A model generated the notes under the pieces. It searched no databases, was not told the DNA's origin, and was given only the letters and a program-made list of their open reading frames with translations. From IMG/VR virus record IMGVR_UViG_2690315922_000022, positions 1 through 25,367 of that record: 25,367 nt of DNA; one strand, written 5' to 3'. Shown one piece after another: positions 1 through 25,149 of this stretch; the stretch's first letter is position 1, and every line of letters starts with the position of its first letter. The position numbers were made by a program, and so were the translations under genes. Source of the stretch: a virus. Lineage: Duplodnaviria > Heunggongvirae > Uroviricota > Caudoviricetes.

Positions 1-1158
1 ATGCTCACCGTTAAACAGATTGAAGCGGCAAAGCCGAAAGAGAAACCATACCGACTTGTTGATGGTAATGGTCTGTACCTTTATGTCCCTGTATCCGGAA
101 AAAAGGTCTGGCAGCTTCGCTACAAGATTGACGGTAAAGAGAAAATCCTGACTGTCGGAAAATATCCGCTTATGACTTTGCAGGAGGCAAGGAATAAAGC
201 ATGGACTGCGAGGAAAGACATCTCGGTTGGCATAGATCCGGTAAAGGCGAAAAAGGCTTCGTCTAACAACAATTCTTTTAGTGCAATTTACAAGGAATGG
301 TACGAGCACAAGAAGCAAGTTTGGTCGGTAGGCTATGCAAATGAACTTGCAAAAATGTTTGATGACGACATTTTACCTATCATCGGCAGCCTTGAAATTC
401 AGGATATTGAGCCGATGCAACTTCTTGAAGTAATCCGCAGGTTTGAAGATCGCGGTGCAATGGAGCGAGCCAACAAAGCACGCAGAAGATGCGGCGAGGT
501 TTTCCGTTACGCTATTGTCACCGGAAGGGCTAAATATAACCCAGCACCTGACCTTGCAGACGCCATGAAAGGATACCGCAAGAAGAACTTCCCGTTTCTT
601 CCTGCAGACCAGATCCCGGCATTCAACAAAGCACTGGCAACATTTTCAGGAAGTATCGTATCGCTCATTGCGACCAAAGTTTTACGCTACACAGCCCTAA
701 GAACGAAAGAGCTTCGTTCCATGCTATGGAAGAACGTCGATTTTGAAAACAGGATTATCACCATTGACGCCAGTGTGATGAAGGGACGCAAAATTCATGT
801 GGTTCCTATGTCAGACCAGGTAGTTGAACTTCTCACTACGCTAATCTCAATCACCAAACCAGTATCAGAGTTTGTTTTTGCCGGGCGCAACGATAAGAAG
901 AAGCCAATCTGTGAGAACGCAGTGCTACTTGTGATCAAACAAATCGGATATGAGGGTCTGGAAAGCGGTCACGGATTCAGGCATGAATTCAGCACGATTA
1001 TGAACGAGCACGAATGGCCCGCTGATGCTATTGAAGTGCAACTGGCACATGCCAACGGCGGTTCTGTGCGTGGAATTTACAACCATGCTCAGTATCTCGA
1101 TAAGCGCAGAGAAATGATGCAGTGGTGGGCGGACTGGCTTGATGAAAAGGTGGAGTGA
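1..1158 (+). CDS. int: Phage integrase, P4-type tyrosine recombinase (IntS / Sf6-Int-like); N-terminal arm-binding domain plus C-terminal catalytic domain
   Basis: 385-aa ORF starting at window base 1 (MLTVKQIEAAKPKEKPYRL...); C-terminal GHGFRHEF and RGIYNHAQYLDKR motifs typical of tyrosine recombinases. I recognise it from memory as near-identical to E. coli CPS-53 IntS. A start upstream of the window cannot be excluded. Confidence 0.9.
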   Translation: MLTVKQIEAAKPKEKPYRLVDGNGLYLYVPVSGKKVWQLRYKIDGKEKILTVGKYPLMTLQEARNKAWTARKDISVGIDPVKAKKASSNNNSFSAIYKEWYEHKKQVWSVGYANELAKMFDDDILPIIGSLEIQDIEPMQLLEVIRRFEDRGAMERANKARRRCGEVFRYAIVTGRAKYNPAPDLADAMKGYRKKNFPFLPADQIPAFNKALATFSGSIVSLIATKVLRYTALRTKELRSMLWKNVDFENRIITIDASVMKGRKIHVVPMSDQVVELLTTLISITKPVSEFVFAGRNDKKKPICENAVLLVIKQIGYEGLESGHGFRHEFSTIMNEHEWPADAIEVQLAHANGGSVRGIYNHAQYLDKRREMMQWWADWLDEKVE

Positions 1159-1182
1159 TCCGCCTTAAAAACTATCGAATAG

Positions 1183-1230
1183 CACAAAGCCTTGCAATCC
1201 AGTGAAAAGCTTTGTGTGTATGAGTTTTTT
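1183..1230 (+). terminator. Putative int 3' stem-loop: 8-bp inverted repeat CACAAAGC...GCTTTGTG followed by a T6 run
   Basis: Perfect 8-bp inverted repeat at 1183-1190 / 1209-1216 with an 18-nt loop, then TTTTTT at 1225-1230. Loop length and spacing are non-canonical. Confidence 0.3.
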
Positions 1231-1311
1231 CTCATCAACTACCGCAAGTCATCGATCGATTGAGACTAGGATGATAGACTCCATGCCTTTAATTATTAGC
1301 TGATAGAAGAA

Positions 1312-1674
1312 ATGTTAAAGCTATTTGCAAAGTACACCTCGATTGGTGTGCTAAACACACTTATACACTGGGTGGTTTTTGGTGTCTGTATCTATGCAGC
1401 GCATACAAATCAGGCTCTGGCAAACTTCGCAGGTTTCGTTGTGGCAGTGAGCTTTAGCTTCTTCGCGAATGCAAAATTCACATTCAAAGCATCGGCTACA
1501 ACGATGCGCTACATGTTATATGTCACGTTCATGGGAGCGCTTAGCGCTGCTGTTGGATGGGCTGCTGATAGATGCGCACTTCCCCCAATCATTACTCTTA
1601 TAACCTCCTCCGCCATCAGCCTGGTGTGCGGTTTCGTCTATTCAAGGTTAATTGTCTTTAGGAGTGCGAAATGA
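1312..1674 (+). CDS. gtrA: GtrA, bactoprenol-linked glucose translocase (flippase), small 4-TM membrane protein
   Basis: 120-aa hydrophobic protein immediately downstream of int, overlapping the next gene by 4 nt (ATGA); size and sequence are typical of GtrA in serotype-converting phages. Confidence 0.9.
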
Positions 1675-2594
1675 AGATATCTCTTGTAGTTCCTGTCTTC
1701 AATGAAGAAGAGGCGATACCAATTTTTTATAAAACGGTGCGTGAATTCGAAGAGTTGAAGCCATATGAAGTAGAAATTGTTTTTATAAATGATGGTAGCA
1801 AAGACGCTACTGAGTCAATTATTAATGCTCTGGCTGTTTCAGATCCTCTAGTTATTCCTCTGTCATTTACTCGCAACTTTGGTAAAGAACCAGCATTGTT
1901 TGCAGGGTTAGACCATGCTACTGGAGATGCCGTGATTCCAATTGATGTTGACCTGCAAGACCCGATTGAGGTTATCCCTCATCTTATTGAAAACTGGCAG
2001 GCTGGCGCCGATATGGTGCTGGCAAAGCGTTCAGACCGCTCTACAGATGGGCGTCTGAAGCGCAAGACAGCAGAGTGGTTTTATAAGCTTCACAATAAAA
2101 TCAGCAATCCGAAGATCGAGGAAAATGTTGGCGATTTCCGGCTGATGTCCCGCGATGTAGTGGATAATATTAAGCTTATGCCAGAACGCAATCTTTTCAT
2201 GAAAGGCATTCTTAGTTGGGTTGGTGGGTCTACAGATGTAGTTGAGTATGTCCGTGCTGAGCGGATAGCCGGCAGCACGAAATTCAATGGATGGAAATTA
2301 TGGAACCTAGCACTTGAAGGTATAACAAGTTTCTCCACTTTCCCTCTGCGTATGTGGACTTATATTGGGCTATTCGTAGCTGGAATGGCTCTTTTATATG
2401 GCACATGGATGATTATCGATACCTTGGTGTTTGGGAATCCGGTTCGCGGTTACCCATCACTTATTGTATCCATTCTCTTCTTAGGCGGAATTCAGCTTAT
2501 AGGAATTGGCGTACTTGGTGAATATATAGGAAGAATTTACATAGAGTGCAAAGATAGACCTAGATTTATTATCAAGAGAATGAAAAATGAATAA
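1671..2594 (+). CDS. gtrB: GtrB, bactoprenol glucosyltransferase (GT2 family)
   Basis: 307 aa; N-terminal GT2 signature ([23 protein letters not shown]) and two C-terminal TM helices; coupled to gtrA and to the downstream gene by overlapping stop/start. Confidence 0.92.
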
Positions 2595-4017
2595 AACAAT
2601 TAAAATCAACTTCTACATACTATTTATTATTTTGTTTTTTATTATAACATGTAATATTTACTACTATGATGATGTATTTAGATCGTATTGGGGATATTAT
2701 GGTTGGTCTGAAGATGGAAGGCCTTTTGCAGATTTATTCTATAAATTATTTATTTTCTTTAGATCTGAAAGCATACCAGATATTTACCCACTACCACTAA
2801 TTTTAACGTCTGTGCTTCTTGTTATATCACTAACAAAGGCATTGCAAAATATACTATCAAAAGATGGGGTTATAGTTAATATAACTTTTGCAATATTTAT
2901 GCTTAATCCTTTTCTTTTGTCTAATATGCTATTTAGATATGATGGTGCATTTATGATTTTATCTATTGCACTTTCGGCTATTCCGTTCATTTTTACAAAA
3001 AGTAGAACATTCGCCATATCATCACTACTGTGCCTAACAATATCGCTTGGATTGTATCAGGCCTCAATAAATGTGTATATTGGACTTGCATCAGTAGTGG
3101 TTGCAATGGAAGCATTGAAAGGGGAAAAGTTTACATCTATAGCCAGCAGAGTGCTATTATCTGTTACATGCGTAGTCTCTTCATATGTTATATACTCAAA
3201 ATTAATACTTGAATCATTATCTTTAAATAATAACTTCTCGAAATATGCTCAAATAGTTGAATTAAATAAAGGAGGAGTCATCAATGTTTATGAGAATATA
3301 ATTAACGCAGTTAAAAAAATTGATGTTGCTCTTCATAGTGGTATTGGAACACCTCTTTATATATTTCTATCAATAATAGCCATATCATCTGTGTGTGTTG
3401 CCATTAAACGAAAACAATTTCAGTTACTATTTTTTATTGCTATATCTATTTTAGGTTGTTTCTTTTCTTCTTTTGGTGTGTCTGTCTTTGGGAAATCGCC
3501 AGTATTTGTGTCAAGGATATTTATCGGATTTGGTGTTTTTATAATGGCAGTTCCTTTGATTGGCTCAGCACTTCTTAATTGGAAACTTAATTACTTACTA
3601 TCATTATTCATTGCAATTCCTATGCTGTCCATCTTTTTTGCCACCATTAATGCCTCAAGAGAGGAATTTAAATTCCAAAACAATTTATCACTTCAAATGA
3701 TTAATGATATTAATCATAGCAAAGCTAAATATCTCGACTTTGTTGTTATTGATGGCTATGCGAAGAACTCCTCTGTTGCAAGCATAAATAAGAAAATATT
3801 TCCCGTAATATCTGATATATTGCCTCCTGTCTTTACAAATAGATATGATGGTGGGGTTTTTACATTGATGAGAAATGGACTAAAAGATGTTGTTAGTGCT
3901 GAGTCATCAGCTGCAGACAACGCGGTATCAATATCAGATGACGGAAATCTAATTTCTGACAATAATATATATAGCATTCATGCGACCAAAGATATTATTG
4001 TAATAAAATTAAAATAA
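2587..4017 (+). CDS. Serotype-specific O-antigen glucosyltransferase (GtrC-type polytopic membrane protein); exact specificity not identifiable
   Basis: 476-aa multi-TM protein as third gene of the gtr operon; very AT-rich compared with gtrAB, as is typical of horizontally acquired type-specific gtr genes. Confidence 0.8.
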
Positions 4018-4084: not shown

Positions 4085-6148
4085 CTAAGAAAAAATCCAA
4101 TTACCATACATTCCAGTTATTTCACTATATGTGCCTTCTTTATTTTTTAATTTAATCCAAGCGCCGAATTCAGTGGTGGCTACTTGCGTTACTTCTGAAG
4201 AGTTACTTACAAACCTTATATTTGCTACACCTATTGCTCTACTTGGTGATGAGATTGTCATAGCTCTTATTATTTTTAACTCTCTGAAATCACCAGTGCT
4301 ACTTGCAATTATATCAATATCATTAGTGCTATGGTTAAATATAATGGTGTTATTTAACAGCTTTGTATTTTGAAAAGATGTTATTGTGGCAATCCCTCCA
4401 ATAAATCCTCTTATCTGGGCCGGGCCAGTATCTCCACTATCATAGGCTAATGATGTGGTTATATTATCTTCCTCCTTTCCTATATGTATATCAATAAAGT
4501 ACTCTTTTAAACTAATACCAGCCAAAACTAAAAATGTTGATATAGTAGATGTACATTTTTTAATAACCAGATTCTTAAAATTTCGAGATAACCCGCTGCT
4601 TATTGGATCAATAGTTCTAGGTAATAATCTGATTATTTTATCCCCACCAGCTATAGTAGTTTCATCAACAATTTCACCTATTTCCACAAAAAGGCGGTCA
4701 TCCCCCAGCATTTCAAAAACACAAAAGTCTAAAGGAGACGTTTTAAATACCACTCTATCAATTAAGATTTTCCCTATACCATTTCCCATAACTCTAGTAG
4801 CTGTCACCCCTCTGTTAGTCACATTCGTTAGTGTTGTATTCCCCGAGATGATTACATCAGCTACAAGACTGTCAGGGAAAATATTAAGTTCCAAACCAGT
4901 ATACGCACCATTGATGTATGGGTTTGAGATTTCACAATTAATCAGCCGAGGGACAGTGTGTCCAGGCACACTTTCGTCTGCCTCTGGTTCAATATCTATG
5001 CCAGATTTCGGCATAGCACCTGTAACACCTCCGTAGTCACCAATATTATAAATCTCAGGATTAACTATTATTATGTTTTCACCTGACGTTAGGCTTATAC
5101 CGTTACGCCTGCATTGTTTGATGATCGGTTTTTCTATATAGATATTTTCTGGGACCGTGCCATCGGTAGTCCCCCACTTCATGCCTATATATATTCCGTC
5201 GCCAAACATGTTGGTATACAGTCCACCAATAATACGAATATTAGAGGATTGAAGTATTGTAAGCCCCCACCCATGTTCTCCTTCGGATGTGTTTGTTAAC
5301 CGATCACCTTCCAGTACAGGATTATAAATATTTACATTTTTAACACCGTTTGCTATGTAAATGATATGGCTTTGTGGCCTGTTTTGATTTGCTAGTTTTA
5401 ATGCCCCATCCTTTTCAAACCTTATAGTGCTATTATCTACGCATCTTAACACAGATTTAAAAGCATCATTTCCAGGTGAAAAAGGGTCTTCATTCACAGC
5501 CATCAAGTTTTCAAATGATTTATCTATAATGAATTCTGCACCAATAGACGCTGCGGATTCATACGCTTTTTGTAGTGTTTGTGCGTCATTGCAAAAATCA
5601 GAAGCATAAATAGAGCTGGTTTTCTTTAATTCAAATATCCTACCGTTTCTGCTCCTGATAATTAATATTCCATCTGGGGTGAGCGTGGGGGTGGATGATT
5701 CATAAACATATCTACCATGAATCATTACATGATTAAATATATCTGGGACATCCTCTTGCTCTATATTAATAGCAACATATATAAGTTTATTACTTAACTC
5801 CCCCCTTAACTGATCAGGGTCATACTTCAGCACATTCTGGAAATAGAACTGCTGTACGCCATACGCATCATAAACAGCCATAGAATGGCCTTGCACGGTT
5901 ACGAACTTGGCAATCTGTCCGTTATATACAGGGTAACCAGCAGCGTTAATGATGATTGGTTGCGATACAGGAACGTGAGAGCCGTCTTCGTTCTCCACAT
6001 AAACCTGAATCTGGTTTTCAGGATTTACCGGGTCAGTATCAATTTTACCGATATAAATTTTGCCATTAGCTACGGCTTTAAAAGAACGCGCCATAGTGAA
6101 GAGTTGCGAAGGCATGCTAACTACAACATTGGCTGTAATGTCTGTCAT
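4085..6148 (-). CDS. Tailspike protein: P22/Sf6-type N-terminal head-binding domain plus divergent right-handed beta-helix receptor-binding domain (probable O-antigen depolymerase)
   Basis: 687 aa; the first ~110 aa ([34 protein letters not shown]...KYDPDQ) match the conserved tailspike N-terminal domain as I recall it; the remainder is AT-rich with beta-helix-like repeats ([22 protein letters not shown]); GGAG RBS 9 nt upstream. Confidence 0.85.
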
Positions 6149-6248: not shown

Positions 6249-7127
6249 TCAGTAGTTATGTACTGAAGGAGGTAATTCTTTATTCTTAAGTCTCATCCAT
6301 GCGGAAAGATTCGTTGGTCCGTCTGGCTCATTAATATCAACATCTCGTGTGTGATTGATTAAAACGTCTCTCGCCATTCCGATAACATACGAGAACTCAT
6401 GACCGTAGTCGTAGCATCTGCCGGAATAGTTCGATTGAATTTGTTTTAGCGCCGGATACAGTTCGCGGAATAATGCCTGTGAGCGGTTAGCATAATCCCA
6501 TAACCATACAAGGCTGTTTGCTTCTTTTGCAGAAAGCTCGTCGGTTTTCTTCTCTTGTTTGCCAATGAACTCGCCTTCAAGCACTACCCTGTGGATGTAC
6601 TCTACGGCCAGCGGGATTTGTTCAATTGAAAGTTCATCAATACTGTCAATACCAAAACGCTGATGAACCATATTGTATGCATCGTCATAGCGAAGTCCTT
6701 TCTTTCCTACCAGCATGTTTACTGCATCGCGTAGCGGTGTTCTTTCCTCAACAGTGGTTTTCTTTCCTTTTACATACTCGCCATGTTTGCGAATTGAAGG
6801 CAGAACTTCTGCTGTTACCCATTTGCGGAATTTGTGCGGGACTGAACCTTTATTGACTGCATCGCGGCAGCGCAGAACCAATGTATACATACCTGATTCG
6901 CTCACAATGCTTAGATTCTGCTCACCACCAAGGGTGTAACTTAAAGTTACTCCCTTTTCATCGTCATCAAGTGCAGTAAGCGCCTTGCGTGAGTTAGTCA
7001 AAGCTAAAGCATCACAAACATCTTTAGCTACAAACCACGGCTCACCGCACTTGTTGATGACGCGGATTTCACTGTCGCCGAATTTGAAGATGGTGAAATC
7101 GTTTTGTGCCTTTGCTATACTTTTCAT
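6249..7127 (-). CDS. ant: Antirepressor Ant (Bro-N / KilA-type N-terminal domain plus ANT C-terminal domain)
   Basis: 292 aa (P22 Ant is about 300 aa); N-terminal [11 protein letters not shown]...[14 protein letters not shown] motif; located immediately downstream of the arc-like gene as in P22 immI. Confidence 0.85.
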
Positions 7128-7199
7128 GTCAATATTTCCTAATCCGATTTGTTGATACCGAAGCCCTGACTGTTACAGCAGTTGGGGCTTCAACTTTTT
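7128..7199 (+). ncRNA. sar: Candidate sar-like antisense RNA covering the ant RBS and arc-ant intergenic region
   Basis: Plus-strand hairpin GAAGCCC (7160-7166) / GGGCTTC (7185-7191) followed by T5 (7195-7199), antisense to the ant leader; no plus-strand gene is upstream. The 5' end is not defined and promoter elements are weak. Confidence 0.3.
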
Positions 7200-7330
7200 A
7201 GGCTGCGAATAAGACGCTGCACTATTTCTGAATTTAAAGACCTGCCCTCCTCCTTAGCCTTTTCCTTCAATTTTTCTTTAATCTCTGGCGGGATACGAAT
7301 CCCTAATGGAGCGATATCTCTAACTTTCAT
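7190..7330 (-). CDS. arc: Arc-like ribbon-helix-helix repressor
   Basis: 46-aa product from the internal Met (MKVRDIAPLGIRIPPEIKEKLKEKAKEEGRSLNSEIVQRLIRSLKS) with the RHH signature GRS-NSEI; the 87-aa upstream extension is rejected because it would run across the divergent promoter into mnt. Confidence 0.6.
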   Translation of the reverse strand: MKVRDIAPLGIRIPPEIKEKLKEKAKEEGRSLNSEIVQRLIRSLKS

Positions 7331-7440
7331 TTCTTTCCCAATTGCTACACCATGATAACTAAATACTACACCGTGTTTATTTAAAGTCAAAATTTTTTTG
7401 CCTACACTGTGTAGCAATGCTACAGCGTGCAGGAGGAAAA
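7331..7440. promoter_or_regulatory. Divergent Pant / Pmnt promoter-operator region with four CTACAC-type repeats
   Basis: Minus strand: -35 TTGACT (7390-7385), 16-nt spacer, -10 TAGTAT (7368-7363). Palindromes ACACCGTGT (7368-7376) and CTACACTGTGTAG (7402-7414) plus GCTACACC and GCTACAGC copies; AGGAGG RBS sits 4 nt before the mnt ATG. Confidence 0.5.
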
Positions 7441-7689
7441 ATGAAAGGTGCAAGAGATATCAGTCCCTTGGGAATTAGGATTCCAGACTATTTAAAGAAA
7501 CGCATTCAGCAGGAAGCGGATAAAAACGGCAGATCAATGAACTCAGAGATTGTGCTTATCCTTCAAAAACATGTTGATAATCTTGATGGCCCTCGCTCAC
7601 TTGAAGGATTCGCTAACCAAGAAGCTGATAAATTCAAAGAGGCGCTGCTTGAGACGCTGAAAACCATGTATGGCAAGGATGAAAAATGA
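7441..7689 (+). CDS. mnt: Mnt-like ribbon-helix-helix repressor with C-terminal coiled-coil
   Basis: 82 aa from the Met preceded by AGGAGG; N-terminus RDISPLGIRIPDYLKKRIQQEADKNGRSMNSEI is an RHH fold; length matches P22 Mnt (83 aa); divergent from arc-ant. Confidence 0.7.
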   Translation: MKGARDISPLGIRIPDYLKKRIQQEADKNGRSMNSEIVLILQKHVDNLDGPRSLEGFANQEADKFKEALLETLKTMYGKDEK

Positions 7690-7895
7690 ACAAAAAACAG
7701 TTTATTAAGTCAACAACGTCAAGCAAGGAAGAGCTAGAGAAGGAGCTAAACTCCCTGAAATATGCTCTGTGCCTGGTTTACTCAAGACTGCCAATGGAAG
7801 ATAAAAACGCCATTTACAATGAAATGATTAACAGCCTTGATTTTAACGATAGAGACCTAGCATCCCACCTCAACAGCTTCCGCGTCCCTGAGTAA
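7686..7895 (+). CDS. Hypothetical 69-aa protein translationally coupled to mnt
   Basis: ATGA stop/start overlap with mnt; AAGGA RBS; AT-rich; no family recognised. Confidence 0.45.
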   Translation: MNKKQFIKSTTSSKEELEKELNSLKYALCLVYSRLPMEDKNAIYNEMINSLDFNDRDLASHLNSFRVPE

Positions 7896-8055
7896 TTCTA
7901 TTGCGGATTTGCTTCTTACGGTGGTTTAAGCTGGAGAGCTTGGCTTCTGCTTCTGATATTTGCGCATCAAGATCTTTAAGCTCAAGATCTGAAAGTCGCT
8001 GGTCAAGCAGGGTTTGGTTCAACTCAATGTTGTTCAGGCGTTCTTCTATGGTCAT
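7870..8055 (-). CDS. Hypothetical 62-aa coiled-coil protein
   Basis: Internal Met with strong RBS (AAGGAGAAATC-ATG); heptad-like sequence (LNNIELNQTLLDQRLSDLELKDLDAQISEAEAKL); its 3' end overlaps the convergent 69-aa gene by 26 nt. Confidence 0.4.
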   Translation of the reverse strand: MTIEERLNNIELNQTLLDQRLSDLELKDLDAQISEAEAKLSSLNHRKKQIRNRITQGRGSC

Positions 8056-8196
8056 GATTTCTCCTTGTTGAGGTTGATGTGAAACGATTGATTGTATACG
8101 CACTCTTTTGTTAGCTAGTAGCTTTGCTTAATCGCAAGATAAAGTTTCTGATTAATCCCTAAAAATCAAAAAATAAAGTTAAAACAGGTACATGAT

Positions 8197-8400
8197 ATGG
8201 AATGGATCATAGGATTTGTTGTTCTTGTCTTCATAGCCAGTATGTTTAAACCAAGAAGTTGCGATATCTGTGGTGCTGGATTTAAGAAAAAGTACTTCAC
8301 ATGGACTATCGATGGAAAGAAACAGCATCTTTGTCCGTACTGCAACAGTAAAATGGAGAGACGCAACAGCGATAGGCGCTTTAAGGATCGATTTGGTTAA
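8197..8400 (+). CDS. Hypothetical small membrane protein with zinc-ribbon-like C-terminus
   Basis: 67 aa: N-terminal TM helix (WIIGFVVLVFIASMF) followed by CDICG...CPYC, then a basic tail; terminator follows immediately. Confidence 0.5.
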   Translation: MEWIIGFVVLVFIASMFKPRSCDICGAGFKKKYFTWTIDGKKQHLCPYCNSKMERRNSDRRFKDRFG

Positions 8401-8413
8401 CCATTTTATCTCC

Positions 8414-8449
8414 AACAAAAAACCCACCTGACGGTGGGTTTCATTTCTT
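8414..8449. terminator. Bidirectional intrinsic terminator
   Basis: AACCCACC-TGAC-GGTGGGTT hairpin flanked by an A-run upstream and a T-rich tract downstream; lies between the convergent 8197-8400 (+) and 8448-8867 (-) genes. Confidence 0.55.
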
Positions 8450-8867
8450 AATCTTGCTTCGTGGAAGGTATAAGAGATGCATTTGCCTCTTTTGGCTTCA
8501 ATGTATACATCCCACCATTAAATGGATCAACAGCAAGCCAACCAATTAACCCACCAAACACAAGGTTTCCACCAATATACCAACCATTAGCATTGGCTTT
8601 GATTGGCAGGGTAACTGATTCGTACCCATCCTTTTCCATAGTGATCTGGTAGCTCTTTTTGCCAAAATAACTACCATCTGACTTGGCAAGAGTTACTCCT
8701 TGTGGAGTCTTGCCTTGCGCAACAATCACGCCTGATTCATCTTTTACCTTAAAGCTCGCACCGGAAGGGTTGCTGTTCACTTGCACAAGTTGCGTTTCAT
8801 CACCAACAATAGTTGCGCACCCAGATAACATCATAGCGCCAGCAACGACGCCAATAATCCTCTTCAT
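8448..8867 (-). CDS. Outer-membrane lipoprotein with PEGA-like beta-domain and glycine-rich hydrophobic C-terminal motif
   Basis: Signal peptide with lipobox (MKRIIGVVAGAMMLSGC, Ala at +2); mature region VNSNPSGASFKV...GKTP...EKDGYESVT fits the PEGA pattern; C-terminal GGNLVFGGLIGWLAVDPFNGGMY. An alternative start 12 nt upstream (MEIDMKR) is possible. Confidence 0.6.
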   Translation of the reverse strand: MKRIIGVVAGAMMLSGCATIVGDETQLVQVNSNPSGASFKVKDESGVIVAQGKTPQGVTLAKSDGSYFGKKSYQITMEKDGYESVTLPIKANANGWYIGGNLVFGGLIGWLAVDPFNGGMYTLKPKEANASLIPSTKQD

Positions 8868-8988
8868 ATCAATTTCCATATTTAAAAAACCGGAAACATC
8901 CTAATGACAAACCATTCAAATGTGAAGTAGGCAAAAGATGTTTACTTTTTTCATGATATCCTGTGAAAAACTAAGGAGAGTTAACCAT

Positions 8989-9474
8989 ATGAAAAAATCA
9001 CTGTTAATTATCCCGCTTCTGCTGGTTGGATGCGCAAAAGTAAGTGACTATCAAGCAAGTTGCGAACAACGCTATCACAAGCTTAGCGATATGGCTAATT
9101 GCCTTGATGCCAGTGTGAAGAACGACTCACGCATGGCATCAGCACCAACACCTAAGTTGTATGTCCTTGCTGCAAAGATGCTCGGGCAAGGTGTCGATGA
9201 AGGCAAGATAAGTGACGCACAGGCAAGGCTTGAGCTTCAGAATCTTTATGTTCAATTACAAAGCCAAGAACAAGCCCAACAAATAGCACAAAGCCAAGCA
9301 TTCCAGCAGGCTTTATTGAATTATCAGGCTGTAAACACAATGCAAGCGATCGAGCAAAAAGCGAGACAGCCTGTTATAACTCAACCCTATCCAACACGCG
9401 TTGACACTTACACAAACTGCAATTCAGGGTTTGGAAATACAGTCACATGCAACAGTAGCAGTAACATAAGATAA
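8989..9474 (+). CDS. Lipoprotein with Gln-rich coiled-coil region, function unknown
   Basis: Start at the internal Met preceded by AAGGAGAG RBS; lipobox signal MKKSLLIIPLLLVGC (Ala at +2); several Cys and a Q-rich helical segment; divergently transcribed from the neighbouring lipoprotein. Confidence 0.6.
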   Translation: MKKSLLIIPLLLVGCAKVSDYQASCEQRYHKLSDMANCLDASVKNDSRMASAPTPKLYVLAAKMLGQGVDEGKISDAQARLELQNLYVQLQSQEQAQQIAQSQAFQQALLNYQAVNTMQAIEQKARQPVITQPYPTRVDTYTNCNSGFGNTVTCNSSSNIR

Positions 9475-9564: not shown

Positions 9565-11562
9565 CTATTCTGACAACGCATCAGACTTGGCACCCTGAGT
9601 AATGGCGTTAATGGCCTTTTGCGCCTGCTGCATAGCTTTCTCAAACGCTGTTGATCCGCGTGGGGTATTTGCCATTCGGAGCATTGCATTTCTGAATGGC
9701 TCGCTCTCATAGGCGCGAGTAAGAAGTCCGTAGCTTACCGCTGCGCCAGTTGTCGCCGGGTTCATTGCCGTCCCATACCCGATAATGAACGGGATGGTTT
9801 GCTGCCCTGTTGGTGTTGTTACTGCTGCTTTTGCAGCCTGCTGCGTGGATTGCAGGTAGTTTTTCAATCCTTTCAGATAAGCGGCTTCCTGACCTTTAAA
9901 TGTGATGCCAGTCTGGTTTTGCAGGATGTTAAGCTGCCGAAGGAACTGGTCAGGGGATCCGCCAGATTTCTCCATCGCCTTTCCAATGATGCCATTGCGC
10001 ATTTGCGCCCTGCCAACACGACCAACTGAGTTATACAGCGTCTTAATTTCCGATTTGTTCTTGCTGAATAGCATGTTGTTGACAACTTCCGGCGTCAGGT
10101 CGCCTTTCATGAGAACATTCTTCAGCCTGGTATTCTTTAGTTTCGCCGCTTCGTCAGCGTAGACGGCATTGGCCTGCTGATATTTACGGAGAGTATCGTT
10201 GCCAAGATTCTGACCAATGGCACCATTGATATCGTCTGTCATTGCCTTGTAAACGCGCTGAATGGCAGCATCGGAACGGTTTGGTAACACTGGTCGTTCC
10301 CCCTTCACGTCCATTCTGAACTGGCTGCGCAGATCGCTTAATTGCTTCAAATCCAGATTTACCGGACCATCAGGACTAGCATTGCGAATAAGCTCATCAC
10401 GATAGGATTGAAGTTTTGAAATCGTCTCGTTATCAGCGACCTTACCAAGCTTCTGCAGGTTAGATATCTCAGTATCAATCTGCTGAATTGCTCGCACAGG
10501 CTGAATGTTTACTCCAGCCATAGCATTCTGAACCTGCTCCAGTCGATTACCGGCAGCACGACGAATTCCTGATGTTTTCGCTTTAAGGCTGTCAATAACA
10601 ACTGCCGGATCGTACTCGCCGAATTTATCAGCAAATCTCTGCACCAACTGGCTTCTCGCTTCCTGTTGCGTTGCTCTCATTCCGCTTGTGCCAGCCAGAG
10701 GGATATTTTCTGCTGTAGTCTGCGCCATTTTTCCGACGCGGGAAGTTGGTTGTAACAGGTCTGTGGTGTGCAGAGGAACTCCTTCACGCTCTGCAAATCT
10801 GATAGCCTGTTGCGCTTCTGGTGCGATAGCACCACGAACGCCACGATAAGCAGCACCTAATCCACGTCCGGCAGCGTTAATAGCACCGCCAGCCAGCACA
10901 CCAACGCCTAAATCGGTGGCGAGTGCTTCCGCATCATCTTTCGCACTGTTTGCAGCAAGTGATCCAACTGCGTTTTCTGCGAGAAGGCGAGTTGCCCCCT
11001 GAGCAATTCGACCAGCAAGTGTTGGTGCCTGTGTTGCCGCTCTCTCAACGCCAGCAGGAGTGAGGTAAGGCAATGCTTCAGCAAACACCCTGCCCTCTGT
11101 CGTTTGTGGAGTCAGCGCGCCTTGCTGAAGGCCAAAGTCCTGCTCTAATCCCTGCGTTGTTACTCGTGGCGCTGGTTGATATGTACCATCGCCAATGCCG
11201 AGTTTACCGCCAGCCCATGCAGCCGCACTTGTTACAGCATCGGCAACTGATGCAGGTATGTTTGCCACGTTCACGCCAGCCTGCACCAGTCCGCGACCAG
11301 TCTCTTTTACTGCTTCGCCAAGATCAGACATAAATCCACTTTGCTGTGGTTGTTGCTGTGCTACTGGTTGCTGTGTCTCCACTTGCTGCACAGATGGCAA
11401 TGGATAGGCAGCATAGAAAGCTTGCTTAGCCTGCTCTGCATTTTCTCCGGCTTGCGGGGCCACGACTTCATTGAAGTATTGCTCCTGAGCCTGCGCTTTT
11501 TGTTCTGGTGCTAACGCCTGATACTGTGGAGAGGCGATAACATCTTTCCATGCTTTAGCCAT
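9565..11562 (-). CDS. Ejection (E) protein, P22 gp16-like
   Basis: 665 aa, Ala/Gln/Gly-rich; position and composition match P22 gene 16; start overlaps the gp20 stop by 1 nt (TAATG). Confidence 0.8.
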   Translation of the reverse strand: MAKAWKDVIASPQYQALAPEQKAQAQEQYFNEVVAPQAGENAEQAKQAFYAAYPLPSVQQVETQQPVAQQQPQQSGFMSDLGEAVKETGRGLVQAGVNVANIPASVADAVTSAAAWAGGKLGIGDGTYQPAPRVTTQGLEQDFGLQQGALTPQTTEGRVFAEALPYLTPAGVERAATQAPTLAGRIAQGATRLLAENAVGSLAANSAKDDAEALATDLGVGVLAGGAINAAGRGLGAAYRGVRGAIAPEAQQAIRFAEREGVPLHTTDLLQPTSRVGKMAQTTAENIPLAGTSGMRATQQEARSQLVQRFADKFGEYDPAVVIDSLKAKTSGIRRAAGNRLEQVQNAMAGVNIQPVRAIQQIDTEISNLQKLGKVADNETISKLQSYRDELIRNASPDGPVNLDLKQLSDLRSQFRMDVKGERPVLPNRSDAAIQRVYKAMTDDINGAIGQNLGNDTLRKYQQANAVYADEAAKLKNTRLKNVLMKGDLTPEVVNNMLFSKNKSEIKTLYNSVGRVGRAQMRNGIIGKAMEKSGGSPDQFLRQLNILQNQTGITFKGQEAAYLKGLKNYLQSTQQAAKAAVTTPTGQQTIPFIIGYGTAMNPATTGAAVSYGLLTRAYESEPFRNAMLRMANTPRGSTAFEKAMQQAQKAINAITQGAKSDALSE

Positions 11563-24711: not shown

Positions 24712-25149
24712 TTATTTCAGGCACTGAGTCCTGATGTACTCCTGCAGGTAGTTAACCTGCGCGGTTATCCTGTCGATTCCACTTCGGAGACGGTAATAAT
24801 TGAGTTCAGCATCTGCTGTAAGTCCTGGGCTTTCTCCATCGCCCATGCTGCTGGCTCCGGTCGTTGACTTTGCACAGGTGGCGGCGACTTGCAGGCGCTT
24901 ACGACCAGCAGAAACATCAGCCCGGAGACTTTCGATAGTCGCGTTAGCATCAGCAAGCTCCTTTGTATATCTGGCGTCGAGTTCTGCTACATCACGTTGA
25001 CGCTTCTGCATGTCAGCGATTGTGGATGCGGCCTTATCGCGCTGCTCTTTGTAGGTCATGGCGTTATCACGGTAATGATTAACCGCCCATGACAGACAGA
25101 CGATGATGCAGATAACCAGAGCGGAGATAATCGCGGTTACTCTGCTCAT
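24712..25149 (-). CDS. Rz: Rz i-spanin (lambda-type)
   Basis: 145 aa; [30 protein letters not shown] matches the lambda Rz N-terminus as I recall it; N-terminal TM plus periplasmic coiled-coil. Confidence 0.9.
24765..24956 (-). CDS. Rz1: Rz1 o-spanin lipoprotein, embedded in Rz in the +1 frame
   Basis: 63-aa ORF wholly inside Rz; lipobox LLVVSAC followed by a proline-rich segment, as in lambda Rz1. Confidence 0.8.

Follow-up and report, generated by a model that had tools for sequence, protein, structure and literature searches.

Bor, Cor and Llp are the classic lipoprotein morons of prophages, known for reshaping the bacterial surface, and the gene analyzed here adds a structurally different example to them. 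In genome position it is paralleled by sieA of P22 and gp15 of HK97, both published as superinfection-exclusion genes (PMC10883804 and the title of Cumby 2012 cited there), and SieA is described in PMC10883804 as an inner-membrane protein. The gene occupies positions 8448-8867 on the minus strand of a stretch of 25,367 nucleotides (IMG/VR record IMGVR_UViG_2690315922_000022; hereafter the window, to which position numbers refer unless another record is named). This window is a P22-like (Lederbergvirus) prophage, and the gene encodes a predicted lipoprotein of 139 amino acids. We tentatively read the product as an outer-membrane lysogenic-conversion lipoprotein with a helix embedded in the membrane, which would most likely act by hindering superinfection.

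The existence of the gene is not new, since it has been in databases as a hypothetical protein from 2008 onward. What is new is a defined architecture for the product, the exclusion of a Bor/Iss relationship, the recognition of the gene as a recurrent temperate-phage moron in known exclusion slots, and the finding that strong expression in the prophage state is already present in published data, in this case for the orthologue in the prophage Gally.

Genome positions of the gene in temperate phages

Temperate phages and prophages have captured the gene recurrently, and it lies at four distinct positions in their genomes. Context was examined for five close relatives (54-77% identity, about 137 amino acids), and each of them lies in temperate-phage or prophage DNA. 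In P22-like phages the gene is flanked by mnt and by the gene-16 homologue, the last of the ejection genes; P22 itself uses this gene-16/mnt interval as the slot for sieA, which has its own promoter. In lambdoid prophages of Escherichia coli and Proteus (the latter represented by loci L008-L011) it is inserted as a lone gene between the tail-assembly chaperone and tape-measure genes, which is precisely where HK97 carries its gp15 moron. A Pseudescherichia homologue is found between tail genes I and J, and an Actinobacillus (Pasteurellaceae) phage contig carries one between the Q antiterminator gene and an ant-like gene. The versions in lambdoid siphophages (E. coli, Proteus and Pseudescherichia) are 65-77% identical to the window protein, the one in the Pasteurellaceae phage 54%.

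A total of 111 viral contigs in IMG/VR carry the gene, and the co-occurrence counts given in this text cover 80 of them. The sieA gene is present in 0 of these 80 contigs, and the lipoprotein gene is present in 0 of the 33 contigs that carry sieA. This mutual exclusivity marks the two genes as alternative cassettes and is not proof of functional equivalence.

Four of the five E. coli loci (L003, L005, L006 and L007, not L004) also contain a porin gene (Porin_1/Porin_4, 357-387 amino acids) between the M-like and L-like tail genes (at about 10261-11424, for example in ED1a, CU928162). Porin and lipoprotein homologue thus make two envelope morons in one tail operon.

Transcription unit and expression in the lysogen

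The coding sequence (8448-8867, minus strand, stop codon included) is the orthologue of gp15 of Salmonella phage epsilon34 and of GALLYPH_14 of Escherichia phage Gally and belongs to phrog_6823. Its stop codon lies at 8448-8450. The start is placed at 8867 because the ATG there is kept in epsilon34, 720R6 and Gally, and an in-frame ATG further upstream, at 8879, is not (it is ACG in 720R6 and Gally). Together with the open reading frame (ORF) list, this conserved start codon bears out the gene limits of the original prediction. The match to the PHROG database, the homologue counts and the ratio of nonsynonymous to synonymous substitution rates (dN/dS) all show that this ORF is a real gene, far beyond chance.

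Upstream, a consensus scan found a promoter-like site on the minus strand (8898-8926), with a -35 element TTCACA at 8926-8921, a 17-nucleotide spacer and a -10 element TAGGAT at 8903-8898, followed by a ribosome-binding site GGAAA on the same strand (8877-8873) that is kept in epsilon34, 720R6 and Gally. The upstream region exists as two diverged alleles, one in the window and epsilon34 and the other in 720R6 and Gally, between which the blocks CTTCAC, ATTA[G/A]GAT and GGAAA are kept. At the other end of the gene, a terminator scan found a bidirectional intrinsic terminator hairpin, AAACCCACC-tgac-GGTGGGTTT (8420-8441), which on the minus strand reads GGTGGGTTTTTTGT, with the T-run after the hairpin, and which ends both the lipoprotein unit and the convergent small ORF at 8197-8400. 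Its stem is conserved and its loop variable in epsilon34 and 720R6, and in epsilon34 it is annotated as a Rho-independent terminator.

Expression of the orthologue can be read from RNA sequencing of strain LF82 by Misson et al. 2023 (PMC9928086, tables S1 and S4), which covers lysogeny broth (LB), Dulbecco's modified Eagle medium (DMEM) and macrophages, with values as log2(fpkm+5), where fpkm is fragments per kilobase per million, and two replicates each; the reading of the sample labels B1 and B6 as 1 h and 6 h is taken from the sample names. The Gally copy, LF82_139 (locus L021, LF82 chromosome 1032854-1033893), is 97.8% identical to the window protein, and the figures describe the Gally promoter allele and not the window's own. 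LF82_139 reached 9.82 and 10.19 in B1, 10.49 and 10.24 in B6, 11.03 and 11.00 after 1 h in macrophages (MB1) and 9.39 and 9.50 after 6 h in macrophages (MB6), versus 6.22 and 4.79 in stationary overnight LB culture (BLB). In the same tables the c2 repressor stands at 10.5-12.0 in B1, B6, MB1 and MB6, the adjacent injection genes stand at 2.3-4.2 in all five conditions, and the late genes are silent. In 4 of the 5 conditions LF82_139 is the second most transcribed Gally gene after c2.

The statement in PMC9928086 that Gally has no morons can be traced to the cut-off, which was applied to the LB-overnight data and which GALLYPH_14 just missed (3.3-fold over the prophage median, just under the authors' 5-fold cut-off). 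The gene has a promoter-like site, a terminator and an orthologue that is transcribed in the lysogen with late genes off. It is also dispensable for the lytic cycle, because among 50,697 phage records only 3 contain it; the three are all cultured temperate P22-like phages, and P22, Sf6 and HK620 lack it. These are the hallmarks of a phage moron.

Predicted architecture of the lipoprotein

The N-terminus, MKRIIGVVAGAMMLSGC, reads as a textbook lipoprotein signal, a basic n-region being followed by a hydrophobic core and then the lipobox LSGC. The signal peptide, as read from the sequence, comprises residues 1-16, with the lipobox at L14-S15-G16-C17 (8817-8867, minus strand), where MKRIIGVVAGAMMLSG-C matches the pattern [LVI][ASTVI][GAS]-C. 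Cys17 is invariant in three family alignments (A1, A2 and A5) and is predicted to be the lipidated first residue of the mature protein. The residue at +2, Ala18, is invariant or nearly so in the same alignments, and Asp never occurs there. A prophage-borne lipoprotein with Ala at +2 had been proposed from the window alone, and both points stand. In E. coli, lipoproteins without Asp at +2 are sorted by default to the outer membrane under the Lol rule. Ala at +2 fits such sorting, and an outer-membrane location is what this rule would predict.

The mature protein is predicted to contain a small transthyretin/PEGA-like beta-sandwich (residues 25-93; 8589-8795, minus strand), to which both of two AlphaFold2 models assign a predicted local distance difference test score (pLDDT) of 94-98; the models were built on alignments of 30 sequences (mean pLDDT 76) and 120 sequences (mean pLDDT 82). 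The PEGA-type domain that had been recognized in the protein is sustained as a signature (NPSGA, GKTP and KDGYES) and as a fold, in that the models give a transthyretin-like beta-sandwich that goes with a P-x-G-A motif. Formal membership in Pfam PEGA (PF08308) is not, since the score of 16.3 bits (E = 0.0094, residues 28-92) falls below the gathering threshold of 20.8. Weak PEGA matches occur in only 9 of 30 close relatives and in 6 of 37 distant ones.

The sandwich is followed by a glycine-rich hydrophobic segment, NGWYIGGNLVFGGLIGWLAV-DPFNGGMY (residues 94-121; 8505-8588, minus strand). The glycine-rich C-terminal motif pointed out by the original prediction proves to be the conserved heart of the protein, the stretch NGWYIGGNLVFGGLIGWLAVDPFNGGMY and the DPxxGxM turn after the helix being the most conserved part of the family. 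In an alignment of 37 sequences (35-53% identity) G100, G109, D114, P115 and M120 never vary and N101 hardly does, and in the 120-sequence alignment all six are invariant. Residues 95-113 are predicted to form a non-amphipathic helix of 19 residues, inserted between the last strands and ending in the DPxxGxM turn, with pLDDT of about 50-72 across both models. The helix is uniformly hydrophobic, with a mean hydrophobicity of 0.73, a hydrophobic moment of 0.09 and a Kyte-Doolittle mean of 1.28; it has Trp/Tyr at either end, and its summed score on the Hessa scale is +4.1 kcal/mol. G95, G99, G106 and G109 share one helical face, and there is a single GxxxG (G105-G109). Beyond it lies a predicted C-terminal beta-hairpin (residues 121-131; 8475-8507, minus strand; strands 121-124 and 127-131, block pLDDT 88-95), which in the models packs back onto the sandwich and so would place the C-terminus on the domain's side of the membrane.

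These features bear on the orientation of the protein. If residues 95-113 were a true transmembrane helix, the product could be an inner-membrane protein that blocks DNA entry as SieA and HK97 gp15 do; gp15 too is reportedly an inner-membrane protein, the gene occupies the slots of both, and 19 uniformly hydrophobic residues with aromatic residues at either end would suit such a helix. We consider this improbable. Both the Hessa sum and the Kyte-Doolittle value are below what stop-transfer needs, the confident hairpin on the periplasmic sandwich requires the chain to come back, the +2 position holds Ala and never Asp in the alignments, and one relative is fused to an outer-membrane barrel. A classical transmembrane helix at 95-113 was rejected on these grounds, the hydrophobicity scales being too low and the C-terminal hairpin rejoining the sandwich; the helix thus more plausibly dips into the membrane or binds a partner than anchors the protein by spanning the membrane.

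Relation to Bor/Iss, glycine-zipper, Cor and other families

The C-terminal motif had been likened to Bor/Iss-type or glycine-zipper lipoproteins, and neither likeness survived. The lambda Bor sequence, used as a positive control, scores 105 bits on the Pfam hidden Markov model (HMM) Lambda_Bor (PF06291), to which the window protein gives no match at E <= 10. In a full-length profile-sequence comparison with Bor by hhalign the signal peptides alone align, and when the C-terminal module, as a profile, was compared with mature Bor, the probability was 0.2% over 8 columns (FGGLIGWL / VNGLLGFI). Homology to Bor/Iss was rejected on these three comparisons. Bor-like proteins are also not among the viral fold neighbors of the lipoprotein model. 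The glycine-zipper Pfam families (Gly-zipper_Omp/YMGG/OmpA and Rick_17kDa_Anti) have no match at E <= 10 with either the whole protein or the C-terminal 50 residues, and there is only one GxxxG.

The short resemblance between FGGLIGWL and VNGLLGFI, in two small phage lipoproteins, is what speaks for membership in the Bor/Iss family, which we weighed together with a role as a lytic-cycle component (o-spanin, virion or assembly protein). The tests made already contradict such a reading, and we give it almost no credence: besides the failed Bor comparisons, an Rz spanin of the phage's own is encoded at 24712-25149, the orthologue is transcribed while late genes are silent, and the gene is absent from nearly all phage records. 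For the o-spanin in particular, the phage's own Rz lies about 16 kb off and the lipoprotein orthologue is expressed in the lysogen, and this assignment was rejected.

Several other assignments were tried and set aside. No TraT model matches beyond the signal peptide. The match to Cor (NF047972 / phrog_1119) is confined to the signal peptide and below cut-off, with 12.6 bits versus a cut-off of 31 for NF047972 (residues 1-30) and a match over residues 1-20 for phrog_1119. A role in plasmid entry exclusion was dismissed on the few plasmid matches, several of which are chromosome-sized records.

Family distribution and selection

The gene belongs to a very large, uncharacterized family that is spread across diderm bacteria. 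The match to phrog_6823 (unknown function) is full length with E = 3.5e-85, and amino-acid identity to the orthologues epsilon34 gene 15, Gally GALLYPH_14 (LF82_139) and that of 720R6 is 97-98%. Homologues number 714 among the scored candidates of a 90%-identity cluster set. An exhaustive search of 1.84 billion representative proteins returned 3,520 clusters at 50% identity with E <= 1e-3 and 1,283 with E <= 1e-10, and among the matches listed nearly all of the top ones cover the whole protein. In a genome scan at least 585 loci carry family members, including loci of Halomonadaceae, Erwinia/Pantoea, beta-, delta- and alpha-proteobacteria, Planctomycetes, Opitutales, Nitrospinae and Bacteroidota. 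NCBI names the relatives "hypothetical", "PEGA domain-containing" or "peptidase associated/transthyretin-like domain-containing".

The chromosomal forms are mostly about 170 amino acids long and stand alone in unrelated contexts. When the ORFs of 80 chromosomal loci were clustered in search of a conserved partner gene, no family was shared by loci other than those of close relatives. A second lipoprotein of about 153 amino acids (MKLL...LMTGCASV...GVYVFRK...) lies directly downstream in 6 of these 80 loci, from unrelated phyla (L055 at 4635-5096, L076, L081, L085, L095 and L096), and may be an occasional tandem partner. Most chromosomal relatives share a conserved C-terminal extension (I-x-x-x-L-x-x-D-V-P-x-x-L-R; alignments A2 and A5) that the phage-borne forms of about 137-139 amino acids lack, which makes the phage clade a truncated version of the family. 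One relative of 365 amino acids (P0135) has the lipoprotein module (about residues 11-133) fused to an OmpA-like eight-stranded barrel (165-363; OmpA_membrane, 57 bits), and other long variants have Pro/Ala-rich tails without a Pfam domain. In Erwinia/Pantoea (L042, L046, L053, L070 and L071) the chromosome has a conserved site outside prophages where a homologue with 50-55% identity is found, and the phage-borne clade may plausibly derive from this homologue. The flanking ORFs of this site, judged by eye without a check against a family library, we take to be mmuP/mmuM-like and speG-like. Within E. coli, 126 of 5,426 complete genomes carry the gene, among them the Crohn's-associated LF82, and on plasmids it is rare.

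Among 49 unique alleles from viral contigs the median dN/dS is 0.048, with a median dS to the window of 0.20. The protein is under strong purifying selection, and there is no diversifying patch. The amino-acid variation among the alleles falls mostly in signal peptide residues 6-13, the mature protein being nearly invariant. At codon 84 (8616-8618) the window encodes Ser (GYESVT), and all 49 other unique alleles encode Pro (GYEPVT), a P84S difference.

Two alternative explanations meet this evidence. The first is a lysogenic-conversion factor that serves host fitness without phage exclusion, by reinforcing or remodeling the outer membrane with an effect like the serum resistance of Bor/Iss/TraT or a stabilization of the SlyB/Pcp type, so that lysogens would survive better under serum, antimicrobial peptides or detergents or in macrophages. 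The stand-alone chromosomal family in free-living diderms outside phage context suggests a generic activity that phages have borrowed, and the near-invariant mature protein with its low dN/dS, the high expression of the Gally orthologue in DMEM and inside macrophages, and the company of a porin, another envelope moron, in E. coli lambdoid loci all agree with it. However, the apparent induction in macrophages matches the growth-phase behavior of rpsT, no sequence or profile similarity links the protein to Bor, TraT or glycine-zipper families, and the recurrent sieA and gp15 slots are at least equally compatible with exclusion. We regard host fitness as a possible account, second to exclusion.

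The second, advanced by the original prediction, is that the lipoprotein masks an OmpA/OmpC-type secondary receptor of Sf6/HK620-like phages, in the way that Cor or T5 Llp acts on FhuA. A predicted outer-membrane lipoprotein expressed from a prophage whose phage has a P22/Sf6-type tailspike and ejection proteins would be suited to this, and the P0135 fusion shows that the module can operate beside an OmpA-like barrel. Yet the carriers extend from lambdoid siphophages of E. coli, Proteus and Pseudescherichia to a Pasteurellaceae phage, for which one common receptor is not expected; chromosomal relatives occur in phyla without OmpA/OmpC-type porins; only the signal peptide resembles Cor; and the mature sequence is invariant across hosts. 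Receptor masking of this kind is unlikely in our view, clearly behind host fitness.

A possible role in superinfection exclusion

Our preferred reading, exclusion at the envelope, can be laid out as a mechanism. Within the ant moron region of the P22-like prophage, a self-contained moron of promoter, gene and terminator would yield a Lol-sorted outer-membrane lipoprotein that, once mature, forms a small transthyretin/PEGA-like sandwich. The lipid, the short conserved tether CATIVGD and the 19-residue helix could hold this sandwich flat on the periplasmic face, with helix 95-113 dipping into the periplasmic (inner) leaflet of the outer membrane. The glycine-rich face of the helix, with the invariant Asn101 and Asp114-Pro115, may allow self-association or the binding of a conserved envelope partner. 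The lysogen would make the protein while lytic genes are off, and superinfecting phages meeting the altered envelope might then fail at receptor use or at the trans-envelope DNA conduit. In this respect the protein would be a functional analogue, and not a relative, of SieA, HK97 gp15 or Cor/Llp.

An exclusion role is ranked first because of the slot analogy in two unrelated phage architectures and the expression in the prophage; the invariant Cys17 with Ala at +2, the OmpA-like barrel fusion in one relative, the conserved helix with a hydrophobicity below that of a Sec stop-transfer sequence and the strong purifying selection also speak for the reading as a whole. Several observations weigh against it. 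The slot analogy is weak evidence in that morons of many unrelated kinds use these slots, and sieA excludes the other cassettes of its slot (hkcB and the second lipoprotein) in the same way. The wider family is chromosomal and stands alone in many non-phage contexts (for example Halomonadaceae, the Erwinia/Pantoea site and delta-proteobacteria), and such a spread points less to a function aimed at phages than to some general activity in the envelope. The near-invariant mature protein is without the diversification often seen in phage-phage arms races. The expression pattern, low only in overnight LB culture, parallels that of rpsT in the same table and may reflect growth state, not a macrophage-specific signal. 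The confidence of the deep-alignment model for the helix is only moderate (pLDDT 58-72), and its membrane insertion and oligomerization are predictions. The PADLOC defense models match nothing in the gene or its neighbors beyond chance coiled-coil matches. A literature search found no functional study of the gene or family, and the accessible portion of the supplement to a preprint on CRISPR interference in LF82 does not mention the gene.

On balance, we place exclusion at the envelope first and envelope fitness second, with rather limited confidence in the superinfection-hindering lipoprotein as a whole. We consider the gene a good and cheap experimental target, for which there is as yet no evidence of an unusual mechanism.

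Neighboring genes in the window

The window begins with the integrase gene and gtrA, gtrB and gtrC (1-4017), followed by the tailspike gene (4085-6148, minus strand) and by ant, arc and mnt (6249-7689). After mnt come several small ORFs, the lipoprotein gene at 8448-8867 and a second lipoprotein gene at 8989-9474, beyond which lie three ejection-protein genes and then the head, portal, terminase and Rz spanin genes. Two of the small ORFs between mnt and the lipoprotein gene, at 7686-7895 (plus strand, phrog_16466) and 7870-8103 (minus strand, phrog_7586, coiled-coil-like), overlap convergently at their 3' ends within the ant moron and occur in 3 and 9 of the 80 related viral contigs, respectively. 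A third, at 8197-8400 (plus strand, 67 amino acids), would encode an N-terminal hydrophobic helix followed by CxxC...CxxC with a weak Zn_ribbon_8 match; it has no PHROG match and is present in only 1 of the 80 contigs, and it may be another small membrane moron or no gene at all.

The second predicted lipoprotein (8989-9474, plus strand, divergent from the gene at 8448-8867) has 161 amino acids, a lipobox LVGC with Ala at +2 and a Gln-rich middle. It belongs to phrog_6067 (unknown function) and has no Pfam match. As it accompanies the gene at 8448-8867 in only 16 of the 80 viral contigs, we treat the two as independent cassettes. Its Gally orthologue, GALLYPH_13, is expressed at a log2 fpkm of 7.9-10.3 outside LB, well above late genes, and 4.5-fold over background in LB.

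Comparison with known systems

The nearest described genes are the orthologues in epsilon34 and Gally, which likewise have the last ejection-protein gene on one side and mnt on the other, are annotated as hypothetical and show no difference of substance from the window protein. Gally, unlike the window, is without arc, ant and the extra small ORFs that the window's ant moron holds. Among structural relatives, the Pfam PEGA / transthyretin-like / CarboxypepD_reg / CnaB superfold differs in that PEGA has no conserved hydrophobic helix insertion. The Leptospira lipoproteins of NCBIfam LEPBI_I2678 (NF047662) give a weak recurrent match over the last strands and the hydrophobic helix, in 13 of 37 distant relatives (best E = 1.5e-6) and in the window protein (E = 0.0025, residues 68-133). 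However, the window protein reaches 17.5 bits versus a cut-off of 240, and the LEPBI_I2678 profile spans 247 positions and is itself uncharacterized.

In SlyB, a lipid anchor and glycine-rich membrane helices are joined to a periplasmic beta domain. Like SlyB/Pcp, Cor (phi80/N15) and T5 Llp, the lipoprotein belongs by prediction among small outer-membrane lipoproteins, Cor and Llp being phage-encoded ones that have outer-membrane receptors as their targets. Unlike the helices of SlyB/Pcp, its helix is single and lies within the beta domain, not N-terminal to it. With Bor/Iss it shares the character of a small temperate-phage moron lipoprotein that is expressed in lysogens and predicted for the outer membrane, as well as a common hydrophobic string of 8 residues, whereas the sizes differ and there is no HMM or profile-profile homology. 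With SieA and HK97 gp15 it shares genome slots, an own promoter and terminator and expression from the prophage, but there is no sequence similarity, and those inner-membrane proteins stand against a lipoprotein predicted for the outer membrane.

Knowing what the phage copy does would provide a first functional handle on thousands of uncharacterized diderm lipoproteins, and would show whether phage genomes keep the sieA and gp15 slots for exclusion functions alone. A bolder possibility, which we think unlikely as a complete account, is that the protein represents a new type of outer-membrane lipoprotein, a PEGA-like sandwich with an intramembrane glycine-faced helix that oligomerizes in the periplasmic leaflet, and that temperate podophages and siphophages have repeatedly captured it as a broad-spectrum exclusion device that prevents assembly of the trans-envelope DNA conduit by ejection or tape-measure proteins. 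If this were true, its conduit-blocking mechanism would differ both from the receptor masking of Cor and Llp and from the inner-membrane blocks of SieA and gp15.

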